The notes under the pieces: generated by a model | Database searches by the model: none | Told to the model about the DNA's origin: nothing | The model's input: the letters and a program-made list of their open reading frames with translations, nothing else | Assembly: GCA_031423255.1 (NCBI GenBank) | Contig: JANPFD010000239.1 | Coordinates: forward strand, 1-27,873 | DNA: 27,873 bases | Source: Myxococcales bacterium | GTDB taxonomy: Bacteria; Myxococcota_A; Polyangia; Fen-1088 | Reading direction: 5' to 3' | Shown here: piece by piece, positions 1 through 14,375 of the stretch | Numbering within the stretch: the stretch's first letter is position 1 | How the letters are laid out: each line of letters begins with the position of its first letter | Position numbers and translations under genes: made by a program

Positions 1-2
1 GC

Positions 3-139
3 GTTCACGATGGCCGATCTAGCCGTTCACGATGCGCCGATCCCGGCGTTCATGATCGACCGATCCGCGCGTTCACCATGCACCGATCCCGGCGTTCACG
101 ATGGACCGATCCCCGCGTTCACCATGCGCCGAAATCCGC
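3..139. repeat. tandem direct repeats, ~5.5 copies of a 23-bp unit (consensus GTTCAcgATGgnCCGATCCcgGC); may extend left of window
   Basis: Seen directly. Units start at 3, 25, 48, 71, 94 and 117; each keeps GTTCA...CCGATCC. No intervening unique spacers. Confidence 0.8.
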
Positions 140-425
140 ACCCGAACGTGGGTGGCACGCCATCCGGCACACCTATGCTTCCCATGCAGCGCGCTTCGGG
201 GTGAACCCGTGGCGGCTTCAGGCGTGGCTGGGGCACTCGACCATCGGGATGACCCTGCGCTACGTCCATCAGGTCGAGGAGCACAAGCGACCCATCCCGG
301 AGGAAGTCGTCGCAGCAGGGGCGGGGGCCAGCGGCCCGGACGAACGTGTGGTGCTGATGCTCGGGGCCCGCTACCGAGTAGTCCGTGCAAACGTCGTGCA
401 AACGTCGCCCCTGGCCGTTGTCTGA
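3..425 (+). pseudogene. tyrosine recombinase/integrase C-terminal remnant (catalytic box II + Tyr region only); 5' part replaced by tandem repeats, window-truncated
   Basis: The open frame-3 translation ends ...GWHAIRHTYASHAARFGVNPWRLQAWLGHSTIGMTLRYVHQVEE. That is the HxxRHT box II plus the LGH...Y nucleophile motif of tyrosine recombinases. The ~50 codons upstream in the same frame are encoded by the 23-bp repeats and show no recombinase similarity. Confidence 0.55.
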
Positions 426-632
426 TCGTAGTAAAAATCGATACTTAAGGTGTAGGCGGGACAGGGATTGAACTTGACCGAGAGAAACCGCAAAAAATAG
501 GTGCGGCGCGGATTTGCAAAGCATCTCGGCAAGTTCAGTCCCTGGTCCCTTCCGTCGCGTTCCGTCCAGAACCACCCAGAGAAGTGTTCCGTGGCAACAC
601 GGTGGCAACAGAAACGGTGCTGGGACTACGGT

Positions 633-1037
633 CTACCAGGTCACGACGGTGAGACCGGGGATCTTCAGAAAGTCCCTTTGGTTGCGAGTGACCACGTCGA
701 ACCCTCGTGACAACGCGGTACACGCGATCGCCAGGTCGTCCCTGGGAACAACGATGCCCTTCGCCTGCAACTCGGCGTCTACCCGGGCGCGCACGCGAGC
801 GGCGGCCAGGTCAAAGTCGATGATCGGTATCGCCGAGAGGAACCCTTCCACGATCTCTTCTCGTCGCTTCCGCCGCTCAGGCGTGTCTGCGCGATACACG
901 CCGTGAAGCAACTCAGCCGCTGTCACCGAAGCCATTGCGAAGCCGGCGTCAGGGGTGATGAGCCGGCGGGCATCATCGGACGCCAATGCGCCGCGCTCGG
1001 CGGCGATGAAGATGCTGGAATCGATCAGCGATCCCAC
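633..1037 (-). CDS. vapC: PIN-domain toxin, VapC family (type II TA)
   Basis: 134 aa. The N-terminus MGSLIDSSIFIAAERG (acidic residue in the first strand) and overall PIN-like composition fit VapC. The start overlaps the upstream small ORF by 13 nt. Confidence 0.6.
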   Translation of the reverse strand: MGSLIDSSIFIAAERGALASDDARRLITPDAGFAMASVTAAELLHGVYRADTPERRKRREEIVEGFLSAIPIIDFDLAAARVRARVDAELQAKGIVVPRDDLAIACTALSRGFDVVTRNQRDFLKIPGLTVVTW

Positions 1038-11634: not shown

Positions 11635-11636
11635 CG

Positions 11637-12650
11637 ATGATCGTTCTCGATGGATCGCAGGGGGAGGGCGGAGGGCAGATCCTCCGCTCGGCCCTGGCGC
11701 TATCGCTCGCCACGGGGGCGCCCTTCCGGATCGAGAAGATCCGGGCGGGGCGCCCCCGTCCGGGGCTGATGCGCCAGCACCTGACGGCCGTCGAGGCGGC
11801 GACCGCGGTCGGCGGTGCGGAGACCAGCGGTGCGGAGATCGCCTCGACCGCCCTCACTTTCCGGCCGGGCCCGGTCAAGGCGGGGGCGTACACGTTCTCG
11901 GTCGGAACGGCGGGGAGTGCCACCCTGGTGCTGCAGACGGTGCTGCCGGCGCTGATCACGGCGGGCGGTCCCTCGACGCTGGTCCTCGAGGGAGGAACTC
12001 ACAACCCGATGTCGCCGCCCTTTGATTTTCTGGCGAAGACGTACCTGCCGGTCCTCGCCCGCATGGGACCGAAGGTGGAGGCGACGCTGGAGCGGGCGGG
12101 CTTCTACCCGGCGGGCGGCGGGCGAATGCGAGTGGAGGTGCAGCCGCAAGACAAGCTGGAGCCGATCGCCATCGAGCACCGGGGGGAGATCCGCGCCCGC
12201 CGGGTGCGAGCGGTGCTGGCGAATCTGCCGCGGGCGATCGGGGAGCGGGAGATCGAGGCCATTGCTCACCGGCCGTCGTGGGCGTCGTGCGCCTTCTCGG
12301 TGCAGACGATCGACAACTCGATGGGCCCGGGTAACGTGCTCCTCGCCGAGGTGGAGAGCGAGGCGCTCACGGAGGTATTCACGTCTTTCGGGGAGAAGCA
12401 GGTGCGCGCCGAGGCCGTGGCCGAGCGGCTCGTGCGTGAGGTGGACGAGTACCTGGCCGCCGACGTGCCGGTCGGCGTGCATCTCGCCGATCAGCTGGTG
12501 CTGCTGCTGGCGCTCGCCGGAGGCGGAAGCTTCCGTACGCTGCCGCCGTCACGGCACGCGCGGACTCAGCTCGCGGTCATCGAGCGTTTTCTCGATCGGA
12601 AGTTTGGGTTTGTGGAAGAGAAGACCGGATGGCGGTGCTGCGGCTCGTGA
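11637..12650 (+). CDS. rtcA: RNA 3'-terminal phosphate cyclase RtcA
   Basis: 337 aa. The N-terminus MIVLDGSQGEGGGQILRSALALSLATGAPFRIEKIRAGRPRPGLMRQHLTAV is a near-textbook RtcA motif. It starts 3 nt after the rtcB stop. Confidence 0.9.
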   Translation: MIVLDGSQGEGGGQILRSALALSLATGAPFRIEKIRAGRPRPGLMRQHLTAVEAATAVGGAETSGAEIASTALTFRPGPVKAGAYTFSVGTAGSATLVLQTVLPALITAGGPSTLVLEGGTHNPMSPPFDFLAKTYLPVLARMGPKVEATLERAGFYPAGGGRMRVEVQPQDKLEPIAIEHRGEIRARRVRAVLANLPRAIGEREIEAIAHRPSWASCAFSVQTIDNSMGPGNVLLAEVESEALTEVFTSFGEKQVRAEAVAERLVREVDEYLAADVPVGVHLADQLVLLLALAGGGSFRTLPPSRHARTQLAVIERFLDRKFGFVEEKTGWRCCGS

Positions 12651-12723
12651 CCGGACGTCGGAGAAGGCGCTCGACCAAACTGACCTCGTGACCGACAGTA
12701 GCCTGCCTCAGCTGGTCCTTCCC

Positions 12724-13614
12724 ATGGGCACGCGCGTCGTGACGCGAGTGGAGATCCGCGCCGACACCGAGCGCGCGCACCGGCCCGTCGGCGCCGTCGC
12801 CGAGATCATCGGCCTTCCCGCGGACTCCCTTCACCGCTACCGGATCCGGTTTGCCGATGGGGGTGAGGCCTCGGTGCGGCGAAAGGAGATCAGCATCCTC
12901 AGCCACTACAAGCAGGAGGAGGCGGGATTGCCTCACCCGATCGTGGAGCGCGATCTCACCCCGTACATCATCTACCGGTGCGTGGTGGGCTCGCGCGCGT
13001 ACGGGCTCGAGGGCTCGGAGTCGGACACCGACCGGCGTGGCATCTACCTGCCGCCAGCGGAGCTCCACTGGTCGTTGCACGGGGCACCCGAACAGCTCGA
13101 GAACGCGGAGACGCAGGAGTGCTACTGGGAGCTGCGGAAGTTTATCGACCTCGCCTTGCGTGCCAATCCCAACGTCCTCGAGTGCCTGTACACGCCGATG
13201 GTGGAGCACGCCACGCCGCTGGCGCACGAGTTGCTGGCGATGCGGGCCCAGTTCCTGTCCAAGCTCGCCTACCAGACGTTCAACGGCTACGTGCTCTCTC
13301 AGTTCAAGAAGCTGGAACAGGATCTTCGCGCCAAGGGCGCCATCAAGTGGAAGCACGTGATGCACATGATCCGGCTCTTGCTCGCCGGGATCACGCTCCT
13401 GCGCGATGGTGAGTTGCCAGTGGACGTCGGTGAACACCGGGAACGCCTCCTGGCCATCCGCTCGGGTCAAATGCCCTGGCAAGAAGTGGAGACCTGGCGT
13501 CACGAGCTCCATGGGAACCTTGACGCCGCCTACAGGACGACGAAGTTGCCCGATCGTCCGGACTACGACGCCGCAGATCGTTTCCTCATCAAGGCCCGAA
13601 GGAGTGCTCTATGA
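12724..13614 (+). CDS. Pol-beta-superfamily nucleotidyltransferase (RtcB-operon-associated NTase family), paralog 1
   Basis: 296 aa from the first in-frame ATG after the rtcA stop (the longer 12022 ORF overlaps rtcA out of frame). Motif GSRAYGLEGSESDTDRRGIY = G[SA]-x9-12-[DS]-D-x-D NTase active site, with a C-terminal helical region. Confidence 0.65.
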   Translation: MGTRVVTRVEIRADTERAHRPVGAVAEIIGLPADSLHRYRIRFADGGEASVRRKEISILSHYKQEEAGLPHPIVERDLTPYIIYRCVVGSRAYGLEGSESDTDRRGIYLPPAELHWSLHGAPEQLENAETQECYWELRKFIDLALRANPNVLECLYTPMVEHATPLAHELLAMRAQFLSKLAYQTFNGYVLSQFKKLEQDLRAKGAIKWKHVMHMIRLLLAGITLLRDGELPVDVGEHRERLLAIRSGQMPWQEVETWRHELHGNLDAAYRTTKLPDRPDYDAADRFLIKARRSAL

Positions 13615-14375
13615 ACAGCCACGACGTGGCCCAGGATCCACGACTTCGCGCGATCGTGCAGGCACAGCCTCACCCGCTCCTGTTCGCAACGGTGAGCGGG
13701 GCTCATCTGTATGGCTTCCCCTCGCCAGACTCGGACTTCGATCTTCGCGGTGTCCATGTCCTTCCGCCCGAGTTGGTCGTCGGCCTCGATGAAGGGCCGG
13801 CCACCATCGAGGTAGCGGAGCGCCGTCCGGATCTGGAACTGGATCTCGTCACGCACGACGCGAAGAAGTTCTTCGGGCTGCTCCTGCGTCGCAACGGCTA
13901 CGTCCTCGAGCAGCTCTATTCACCGCTCGTCATCAGCACGACGGCAGAGCACGGAGAGCTCAAGGCGATCGCCCGCACCTGCATCACCCGCCATCATGTG
14001 CACCACTACCGGGGCTTTGCCGGCACCCAGTGGGATCTCTTCTGCAAGGAGCAGCCGCGACGGGTCAAGCCGCTCCTCTACGTGTACCGGGTGCTGCTGA
14101 CCGGCATTCATCTGATGCGCACGGGGGAGATCGAAGCCAACCTCGTTCACCTCAACGAGGAGTTCAGGCTTCCCTACGTCCCGGAACTCGTCGCGCGCAA
14201 GCTGGAGGGACCGGAGAAAGCCACGCTTGCCGAACAGGACTGGGGCCGGCACGAGTCCGAGTACAACCGCCTTGTGGGCGTCCTCGACGAGGCATCGGTC
14301 GCCAGCACGCTGGCCGAGGAGCCGTCAGCACACCGGGCGCTGCACGATCTTCTGGTGCGCGTTCGCCTGAGGTGA
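13611..14375 (+). CDS. Pol-beta-superfamily nucleotidyltransferase, paralog 2
   Basis: 254 aa. Its start overlaps the previous stop (ATGA). Motif GAHLYGFPSPDSDFDLRGVH is the same NTase signature. Similar length and architecture to paralog 1. Confidence 0.65.
   Translation: MNSHDVAQDPRLRAIVQAQPHPLLFATVSGAHLYGFPSPDSDFDLRGVHVLPPELVVGLDEGPATIEVAERRPDLELDLVTHDAKKFFGLLLRRNGYVLEQLYSPLVISTTAEHGELKAIARTCITRHHVHHYRGFAGTQWDLFCKEQPRRVKPLLYVYRVLLTGIHLMRTGEIEANLVHLNEEFRLPYVPELVARKLEGPEKATLAEQDWGRHESEYNRLVGVLDEASVASTLAEEPSAHRALHDLLVRVRLR

Follow-up and report, generated by a model that had tools for sequence, protein, structure and literature searches.

A large tRNA array beside an RtcR-type RNA-repair locus in a Myxococcota-type genome fragment

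We analyzed a contig of a Myxococcales bacterium (JANPFD010000239.1 of assembly GCA_031423255.1), a fragment of an uncultured genome; the window is this entire contig of 27,873 bp, with ~65% G+C. It carries a long array of tRNA genes with an HNH endonuclease gene inside and, beyond a small operon, an RNA-repair locus with rtcR, rtcB, rtcA and two rlaP genes. In related genomes, arrays of the same family recurrently lie beside RNA-repair genes or the gene for Ro60. We propose, with slightly better than even confidence, that the array is a phage-derived reserve pool of tRNAs kept beside machinery that senses and repairs tRNA damage, and that both serve tolerance to the cleavage or depletion of tRNAs. 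The direct basis of this proposal is gene content, homology, synteny with phage contigs, the recurrent linkage, promoter and terminator motifs and the pattern of cytidines at position 33 of the anticodon loop (C33). On this basis the array would be predicted to be expressed and aminoacylated, to resist nucleases and to protect the cell.

The array consists of three parts:

2229 to 5738, minus strand: main array block of 33 tRNA(-like) genes, from tRNA-Tyr(GTA) to tRNA-Leu(CAA); 10 genes of the array have C33
1607 to 2128, minus strand: HNH endonuclease of 173 amino acids, embedded in the array (Pfam HNH_5, 1.5e-17)
1482 to 1554, minus strand: tRNA-Ala(CGC), the last array gene, 3' of the HNH gene (ARAGORN and Rfam)

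With default settings, ARAGORN predicted 28 tRNA genes between 1482 and 5738, all on the minus strand. Rfam added Asp(GTC) at 2556-2627, Pro(CGG) at 4890-4962 and a weak Trp(CCA) at 4231-4298, while ARAGORN at 90% thresholds added Thr(TGT) at 3353-3427 and Ala(TGC) at 4306-4377; these relaxed settings produced just two false calls elsewhere across the 28 kb. Cloverleaf folds were obtained for all five added genes. Manual reading contributed Arg(ACG) at 2873-2947, a poor candidate in which acceptor stem and T-arm are perfect and the minimum-energy fold is not a cloverleaf. The added genes exactly occupy slots that had appeared to be spacers, and their isotypes agree with those at the same positions in related arrays. 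In total, the array holds 34 tRNA(-like) genes in 4257 bp, 28 strict and 6 weaker, which corresponds to 6.6 (strict) to 8.0 (total) tRNA genes per kb. All genes are co-oriented, their isotype order is non-periodic, and the spacers measure 0 to 158 nt except for the 674-nt stretch housing the HNH gene. Most array genes lack an encoded CCA. The original prediction described the array as re-supplying every tRNA isotype. This holds for amino acids, since all 20 are represented in addition to an initiator-like tRNA-Met, and fails for codons: the only Ser anticodon is CGA, which leaves the AGY and the UCU, UCC and UCA codons uncovered, and several other anticodons are missing. The array is therefore complete by isotype and not by codon.

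Two members are unusual in themselves (2479-2551 and 3428-3500). One is a tRNA-Ile with the anticodon UAU, which is rare in bacteria; the other is the initiator-like tRNA-Met, which has three G-C pairs in the anticodon stem, a 1:72 mismatch and an unusual T-loop. Furthermore, a bipartite repeat of ~80 nt occupies seven tRNA-sized spacer slots of the array:

1400-1481, 3733-3815, 3889-3975, 4729-4889 (two copies, opposite strand), 4963-5050 and 5453-5547: copies of the ~80-nt repeat (find_repeats-type repeat search)

The repeat is composed of a first hairpin (GGGAACCCTGAAAGGGTTCCC), a conserved linker (CCTCCCGCGATGG) and a second, G+C-rich hairpin, with compensatory changes at 11/19 predicted pairs. 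It occurs in both orientations and is also present in a second array lineage (L005 8930-9029 and L006 3752-3851). Possible identities are a REP/MITE-like invader and a processing element.

The RNA-repair locus comprises the following elements:

8656 to 10257, minus strand: rtcR, with a CARF-type RtcR N-domain and a sigma-54 AAA+ activator domain (Pfam RtcR, 1.9e-81; Sigma54_activat, 2.5e-47)
10347 to 10362, plus strand: sigma-54 promoter of rtcB, TGGCACGGGCGCTGCA (motif scan; conserved in relatives)
10375 to 11634, plus strand: rtcB, RNA 3'-phosphate/2',3'-cyclic-phosphate ligase (Pfam RtcB, 2.6e-129)
11637 to 12650, plus strand: rtcA, RNA 3'-terminal phosphate cyclase (Pfam RTC, 4.4e-79, and RTC_insert)
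12724 or 12688 to 13614, and 13611 to 14375, plus strand: two RlaP nucleotidyltransferase genes (Pfam RlaP, 5e-44 and 3.3e-54)

The RtcR protein, in which the RtcR domain spans residues 4-183 and the Sigma54_activat domain residues 186-352, scored 787 bits against the NCBIfam equivalog RNA_repair_RtcR (cut-off 650), and together with RtcB, RtcA and the two RlaP proteins it bears out the earlier identification of a CARF-regulated RNA ligase locus. The features expected of an rtc locus are present, namely RtcR with its CARF-type N-domain and sigma-54 AAA+ module, a sigma-54 promoter at rtcB, and RtcB and RtcA together. The genes rtcB, rtcA, rlaP and rlaP run divergently from rtcR; rtcB and rtcA are separated by 2 nt, and an alternative rtcB start at 10399 appears from the sequence to have a better ribosome-binding site than 10375. 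A TGGCACG-type site was found at the same place in 11/11 rtcR-rtcB spacers with a match, with the form TGGCACG-N4-CTGCT/A in ten of them and TGGCACG-N4-GTGCT in the more distant L096. About 55 nt upstream of the rtcB sigma-54 promoter lies a perfect 16-nt AT-rich palindrome (CTAGAAAATTTTCTAG, 10279-10294), a candidate RtcR or IHF site, and comparable AT-rich dyads occur in other rtcR-rtcB spacers. The original prediction had placed the array within 400 nt of the repair locus. This distance has to be corrected: rtcR lies 2917 nt from the array, and the 390 nt measured on that side separate the array from an operon headed by an SPFH/Band-7 gene.

Among related array loci with readable flanks, 9/9 carry Rtc or Ro60 genes within 10 kb. 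The nine are the window together with L001, L003, L004-6, L007, L010, L015, L030, L090 and L109, while the one-sided loci L002, L016, L075 and L194 were uninformative and stand outside this count. L004, L005 and L006 carry rtcR, rtcB, rtcA and rlaP (with rlaP adjoining rtcA in L004 and L005, as in the window), and in L090 rtcR lies directly upstream of the array. A Ro60 (TROVE) gene was found 3' of the HNH gene in L003 and L007, within the array in L010, L015 and L030, the last of which additionally encodes RtcA, and ahead of the array in L109. The linkage holds for HNH proteins with between 47% and 100% identity and takes at least three different arrangements. The named relatives are metagenome-assembled genomes (MAGs) of Polyangia, Kofleriaceae, Haliangiales and Polyangiaceae, in keeping with a probable Myxococcota (Polyangia-like) source of the window. 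As an internal control, we searched 74 array-less loci of the same HNH family and found RtcB, RtcA, RlaP or Ro60 matches in none of them (0/74). Among ~50 viral arrays, seven have such a gene within 10 kb, RtcB-like in six and Ro60 in one. Seen from the side of the rtc genes, a metagenome scan with RtcR revealed an array, Ro60 or a tRNA-like gene right 3' of rtcR in L090, L109, L092 and L088, besides L004-6. Judged by these sequence comparisons, the linkage to RNA repair is not due to chance. The idea was to be given up if arrays and rtc loci were never linked in related genomes; on the contrary, every informative array locus has Rtc or Ro60 genes nearby.

The place 3' of rtcR is variable. In L087, L091, L094, L095, L096 and L106/107 we found neither an array nor Ro60 nor a tRNA-like gene within 1.8-10 kb of rtcR. 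The comparison with array-less relatives that had been suggested for finding the boundaries of a presumed single island located a limit of homology, exactly at the rtcR stop codon, and did away with the single island: because the rtcR-rtcBA core occurs in these loci free of an array, the locus is best described as a resident rtc core with variable cargo 3' of rtcR rather than as one indivisible unit. At this point the window contains

8636 to 8651, minus strand: second sigma-54-type promoter-like site, TGGCCCGCCGCTTGCT, 5 nt past the rtcR stop codon (motif scan)

and the same type of site lies 8-28 nt past the rtcR stop in L001, L088, L089 and L092. The cargo behind it differs, being the SPFH operon in the window, a tRNA-shaped gene in L088, and a tRNA-like RNA with Ro60 in L092. 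The L088 gene (5744-5897) is perfectly tRNA-shaped, has the anticodon CUA and scores 59.7 bits against the Rfam tRNA family (ARAGORN labels it 'tRNA-Pyl'); it is either an amber-suppressor-like tRNA or a Y-RNA-like mimic, probably under RtcR control. The L092 RNA (1449-1760), situated between the sigma-54-type site and Ro60, has the acceptor stem GGAGACG/CGTCTCC, a D-arm and a T-arm, with a large insertion in place of the anticodon arm. It resembles YrlA-type Y RNAs, and its only Rfam match is a weak one to the tmRNA clan. In L109 (172-1197), an RtcR fragment (residues ~299-392) runs straight into a partial Ro60 ahead of the array leader, an arrangement that looks like a deletion fusing two types of repair locus.

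Such variability could also mean that the linkage is structural. If tRNA-like genes near rtcR and Ro60 attracted integrases, HNH-assisted homing or recombination with a tRNA-rich element, arrays would land there repeatedly and merely hitch-hike. The tRNA-shaped gene after rtcR in L088 and the tRNA-like RNA before Ro60 in L092 would provide such targets. An integrase remnant lies at the window edge, the content 3' of rtcR varies among close relatives with a breakpoint precisely at the stop codon, the fusion in L109 resembles a deletion, and the array HNH is regarded as a homing endonuclease (PMC8421152). However, Ro60 is placed 5' of, within or 3' of the array and Rtc genes are in yet another layout, which points to retention rather than to one hot-spot. 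Moreover, phage arrays, for which chromosomal insertion sites are irrelevant, at times carry RtcB-like or Ro60 genes, and cyanobacterial arrays, unrelated in position, also neighbor rtcB (PMC8421152). No att-like repeats were identifiable, since the contig ends at the integrase remnant. We consider hitch-hiking at a hot-spot an unlikely explanation of the linkage.

The phage origin that we propose for the array is based on gene order. Related arrays share the succession Tyr-Lys-Lys-Gln-Phe..., Ile-His-Pro-Ala-Trp..., Cys-Gly-Gly-Thr-Met-Asn-Arg... and Asp-Ile(TAT)-Leu-Leu-Leu-HNH-tRNA, and the order Tyr-Lys-Lys-Gln-Phe...Asp-Ile(TAT)-Leu-Leu-Leu-HNH was found in the contigs L111, L113, L114 and L116. 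In viral contigs with syntenic arrays, the HNH proteins are 65-69% identical to that of the window. L111 carries a 33-tRNA array and a 69% identical HNH and is a genuine phage contig, because it encodes a portal protein and a PurZ-like enzyme. The PurZ-like gene of L111, the closest viral array, lies at 15136-16467 (phrog_1211, 2.6e-73) and suggests that the DNA of this phage may contain 2-aminoadenine. An HNH with 79% identity is encoded on a contig with lysozyme and tail-fibre domains.

These properties place the array in a known class. tRNA array units or L-arrays have been described as long, non-periodic, horizontally spread and supernumerary, with a conserved HNH (PMC4758250; Morgado & Vicente 2018, PMC5966550; PMC8421152; PMC12803027), and the array of the window is, by its sequence features, a member of this class. 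It exceeds the values by which Tran et al. (2016) define a tRNA array unit (at least 20 tRNA genes and at least 2 per kb). Like an L-array, it is long, same-oriented, closely spaced and non-periodic, has an HNH gene inside and belongs to a family with horizontal spread, as indicated by the syntenic viral arrays and by close rtcR loci both with and without an array. To call the array transferable, as the original prediction did, would rest on the integrase remnant at the contig edge, the homologous arrays of phage contigs and presence or absence among close relatives.

The HNH gene sits between Leu(CAA) and Ala(CGC), ahead of the last tRNA gene, and a tRNA gene was found in the same post-HNH position in L002, L003 and L004. 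HNH genes lie beside cyanobacterial L-operons (PMC8421152) and among the tRNA genes of mycobacterial array units (PMC12803027), and the array HNH has been treated as a homing endonuclease (PMC8421152). The family has 1716 homologues with ~70% identity; the reading frame of the window is intact, and a 100% identical copy is present in a second sample (L001). Structural relatives have the DNA-type HNH fold, and PADLOC returned for the HNH protein generic HNH-motif matches only (such as PtuB and Cas9). The AlphaFold model has a mean pLDDT of 61, with values below 50 in the N-terminal 70 residues, and across the family the N-terminal ~80 residues are without known fold (pLDDT <50).

The comparison of the HNH protein also covered plasmids of M. 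intracellulare, Nostoc, Tolypothrix and Acaryochloris. On the M. intracellulare plasmid, a 36% identical HNH is embedded in a 28-tRNA array. HNH homologues were also found on the Nostoc, Tolypothrix and Acaryochloris plasmids, and no array was found near the Acaryochloris one. Furthermore, 74/80 genome HNH matches are without an array; they come mostly from Nitrospira, Acidobacteria and deltaproteobacterial MAGs and are 42-51% identical. Because of these matches and of the Acaryochloris plasmid, the HNH family is not strictly bound to arrays. In the array-less branch (L008-L086, for example L011, L023 and L029), the HNH gene, 42-51% identical, is a single-copy gene in many of the MAGs. A DNA search of the array against plasmids gave single-tRNA and HNH matches only.

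The nucleotide U33 is near-universal in tRNAs. The atypical loops that had been pointed out in the array are indeed there: C33 occurs in 10/34 tRNAs of the window, namely Tyr, Ile-GAT, Pro-TGG, Gly-GCC, Thr-CGT, Thr-TGT, Met (2802-2871), Val-GAC, Val-TAC and Leu-GAG. Across 12 chromosomal arrays, C33 was found in 53/222 tRNAs (24%), compared with 9.6% in seven closely related viral arrays; in 42 other viral arrays, 6.3% of the tRNAs are non-U33 (49 C and one G). U33 was found in each of the 17 isolated tRNAs of the loci retrieved, and C33 in none. In the 12 chromosomal arrays, the substitution affects Ile-GAU (8/9), Val-UAC (4/5), Val-GAC (3/4), Leu-GAG (4/6), Thr-GGU (3/3), Thr-CGU (4/7) and Pro-GGG (3/3). 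Because C33 recurs in the same isoacceptors, these data suggest selection rather than decay acting on the anticodon loop. Changes in the loop have been proposed to let phage tRNAs evade anticodon nucleases (van den Berg et al. 2023, PMC10264068); position 33 is not mentioned there or in the L-array papers searched.

The array might instead be a decaying, functionless leftover of a prophage or integrative element, with its proximity to rtc an accident inherited within one clade. The truncated integrase would fit such a remnant, as would the 6/34 tRNAs missed by default detection, one of which has no cloverleaf, the repeat elements in seven spacers, and reports that L-arrays are mostly silent (PMC8421152). 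We regard this as very unlikely. The HNH frame is intact and identical in L001, and the family keeps its ~70% identity across >1700 proteins. The order of the tRNA genes, the leader and the terminator are conserved between lineages, phage contigs included, whose HNH proteins are only 65-73% identical. Finally, C33 is distributed non-randomly over the same isoacceptors, and the linkage to repair genes is found in loci with HNH proteins only 47-48% identical.

The upstream region of the array has a conserved anatomy of its own:

6009 to 6041, minus strand: conserved promoter-like box, CTTGACG-N17-GTTCACCTT (alignment; promoter role inferred)
5791 to 5820, minus strand: conserved intrinsic-terminator hairpin, GCCGCCCTGGGAAACCACGGCGGC, followed by a T-run (sequence, alignment and consensus structure)

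Between the two lies a leader of ~220 nt, variable in sequence and strongly folded. The block of box, leader and terminator was found ahead of nine arrays, those of the window, L001, L003, L004-6, L090, L109 and the viral contig L113. The terminator is nearly invariant, and ~50 conserved nt separate it from tRNA-Tyr. A consensus fold of the leader recovered the terminator alone, the middle region aligning poorly, and the Y-RNA motif GNCGAA is present in some copies of the leader and missing from others. A terminator ahead of 34 tRNA genes suggests either conditional read-through or a separate small RNA combined with a weak proximal promoter. Either possibility would fit, by analogy, the "silent until stressed" behavior of the Anabaena array.

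In our reading, the window joins two known modules: a phage-derived array with its own promoter-like box, leader and terminator, which occupies the variable slot 3' of rtcR, and a resident rtc locus driven by sigma-54 and RtcR. In the mechanism that we propose, the array would constitute a normally restrained reserve pool of isodecoders, many with C33 loops, which could sustain translation when tRNases of toxins or defence systems cleave or deplete the housekeeping tRNAs, or under translational stress. It would thereby re-supply tRNAs, in part as nuclease-insensitive isodecoders, while RtcR would sense damaged tRNA ends and RtcA, RtcB and RlaP would heal the cleaved tRNAs. According to this proposal, the two modules would be kept together because they act on the same problem and not because they form one operon.

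The same neighborhood can be read in the opposite sense, with array tRNAs being the preferred substrates of tRNases. As sentinels or decoys, their 2',3'-cyclic-phosphate fragments would soak up the toxin, switch on RtcR through its CARF-type domain, or both. The RtcR N-domain is present and intact, and RtcR is reportedly activated by damaged tRNA (Hughes et al. 2020, as cited in PMC8421152). Cleavage in Anabaena was observed for array tRNAs only, which have been suggested to act as a 'sponge' (PMC8421152). The tRNA-like RNAs behind the sigma-54-type site in the same slot of L088 and L092, as well as the incomplete codon coverage of the array, would also be in line with such a role. By contrast, C33 and other loop changes are expected to lower recognition by anticodon nucleases (following the argument of PMC10264068), and 23/26 Anabaena array tRNAs are aminoacylated in vivo, which favors a role in translation. 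We consider the sentinel or decoy role quite unlikely.

Several points weigh against our own proposal of a reserve pool. At least six close relatives have the rtcR-rtcBA core and no array, so that neither module needs the other, and the nine linked loci share ancestry and are not nine independent events. A sigma-54 site directly ahead of the array was found neither in the window nor in L090 or L004-6, and the terminator would block read-through from the rtcR side; regulatory coupling to RtcR is therefore no more than a possibility. The array cannot decode all codons alone, leaving Ser AGY and UCY uncovered, and some of its members are weak, with Arg-ACG lacking a cloverleaf fold and Trp and Pro-CGG being atypical. 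In addition, C33 may lower decoding efficiency instead of giving resistance.

With respect to what is already known, the idea of "replace and repair" has been published, for cyanobacterial arrays and for jumbo phages. rtcB recurs in the neighborhood of cyanobacterial L-operons and, in Anabaena, is induced along with the array, and a joint model of RtcB and array tRNAs maintaining the tRNA pool against VapC-type RNases has been put forward (Santamaria-Gomez et al. 2021, PMC8421152). Normally silent, the Anabaena array is switched on along with rtcB when translation is stressed, and it favors survival (PMC8421152); mycobacterial arrays are now termed putative anti-defence systems (Yano et al. 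2026, PMC12803027). The array of the window resembles these tRNA array units and L-arrays in several respects: over 20 tRNA genes lie in one orientation and in non-periodic order, at a density above 2 per kb and with 19-20 amino acids covered; a single HNH gene from the same family lies within or next to the array; and there are phage and plasmid relatives and a patchy distribution. It also resembles them in its neighborhood, since rtcB and other RNA-processing genes lie near cyanobacterial arrays, with rtcB co-induced, and a putative anti-defence or stress-reserve function has been discussed there. Unlike them, it resides in a Myxococcota-type genome beside a full sigma-54/RtcR locus with rtcR, rtcBA and rlaP (and Ro60 in sister loci), whereas theirs is a TrcR-type repressor regulon with direct repeats. 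The conserved leader with its intrinsic terminator is undescribed in the L-array papers cited, and so is the presence of C33 in a quarter of the tRNAs.

The second known relative is the rsr-yrlBA-rtcBA operon of Salmonella, which is RtcR-dependent and transcribed with sigma-54 (Chen et al. 2014, PMC4201824; Hughes et al. 2020). Both loci have RtcR with a CARF-type N-domain, a sigma-54 promoter, RtcB and RtcA, and tRNA-shaped RNAs are part of the locus in each case; the sister loci L092, with Ro60 and a tRNA-like RNA, and L088 have them behind the sigma-54-type site by rtcR. Here, however, rtcBA points away from rtcR and is accompanied by two RlaP genes, and in place of one or two Y RNAs there are dozens of bona fide tRNA genes, complete with anticodons. 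The window is without Ro60 and without a recognisable Y RNA: Pfam found no TROVE open reading frame and Rfam no Y-RNA match, and an Rfam search of the non-coding stretches 5730-6140 and 8240-8700 with E up to 10 returned no credible family, Y RNA, T-box or riboswitch. The Ro60 module was found in the sister loci L003, L007, L010, L015, L030, L092 and L109. A candidate tRNA-like remnant at 8470-8545, with a T-arm-like GGTTCGAACC, was rejected, as it folds no better than shuffled sequences (z = -0.32) and is thus unstructured.

The third comparison concerns phages. T4 Rnl1 and Pnk acting against PrrC are one case in which RNA-repair enzymes accompany phage tRNA sets. The tRNA sets of jumbo phages are "supplemented" by RtcB/Rnl ligases and TROVE proteins (Iyer et al. 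2021, PMC7824862), and tRNAs of phages rescue them from retron and PARIS defences (PMC11555353, PMC11464382). The module described here shares with them the logic of re-supply and religation and the anticodon-loop variants, and its array is syntenic with arrays of phage contigs. It differs in being chromosomal and beside the host regulator RtcR, so that any benefit would go to the cell or to a resident element and not to a lytic phage. Taken as a whole, both modules are textbook members of known families, and no new kind of system is established. What appears to be new lies at the level of variants, namely the systematic association in Myxococcota with RtcR loci and Ro60, in some cases with the Ro60 gene inside the array; the conservation of leader and terminator; and the isoacceptor-specific C33.

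The remaining features of this part of the window are as follows:

6129 to 8268, minus strand: three-gene operon encoding an SPFH/Band-7 protein (7162-8268), a 242-aa protein without a family match (6437-7165) and an S24/S26-like protein of 100 aa (6129-6431) (Pfam)
1025 to 1330, minus strand: putative VapB-type antitoxin, overlapping vapC by 13 nt (position only)
633 to 1037, minus strand: VapC, PIN-domain toxin (Pfam PIN, 2e-11)
78 to 425, plus strand: C-terminal remnant of a tyrosine recombinase (Pfam Phage_integrase, 4.7e-07, profile positions 129-171 of 172)
14 to 132, no strand assigned: 23-nt tandem repeat, ~5 copies, CCGATCCCGGCGTTCACGATGGA-like (repeat search; contig edge)

Among the collected rtc and array loci, the SPFH operon was found in the window and in the identical element L001 only; by this comparison, it is a lineage-specific insert between rtcR and the array. 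A VapC had been noted at the edge of the presumed island as a possible actor in tRNA damage. Its PIN domain is confirmed, and the nearest NCBIfam model is that of the tRNA(fMet)-specific VapC, with 70.5 bits under a cut-off of 140. VapBC and the integrase remnant lie beside no other array among the collected loci. VapBC may be a tRNase and is more likely an addiction or edge module. The putative VapB has no match in Pfam, NCBIfam or PADLOC, and in the PADLOC defence-system search the SPFH, 242-aa, S24-like, RlaP and VapBC proteins were all without a match. The integrase remnant corresponds to the last ~43 residues of the catalytic domain. The 23-nt repeats run into the start of its reading frame and are possibly the cause of the assembly break at the contig edge.

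A broader interpretation can be formulated, which we regard as doubtful. Myxococcota would have domesticated phage-derived arrays into a supermodule for tolerance to tRNA damage, co-selected with Rtc and Ro60. The C33 isodecoders (Ile-GAU, Val, Leu-GAG, Thr and Pro) would be immune to resident or incoming anticodon nucleases, and the leader with its terminator would act as a novel riboregulator, holding the array back until translation or tRNA integrity breaks down.

What large accessory tRNA arrays do is debated, with codon supply, a stress reserve, anti-defence and selfish cargo all having been considered. Here, in each of the Myxococcota-type loci that were informative, an array family shared with phages in syntenic order adjoins or surrounds Rtc or Ro60 genes. 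Testable handles are offered by the isoacceptor-specific C33, by the leader and terminator, and by the second sigma-54-type promoter 3' of rtcR, ahead of tRNA-like RNAs, Ro60 or other cargo. Overall, these data add independent comparative evidence, from beyond the cyanobacteria and phages, in favor of the view that such arrays belong to the biology of tRNA damage.

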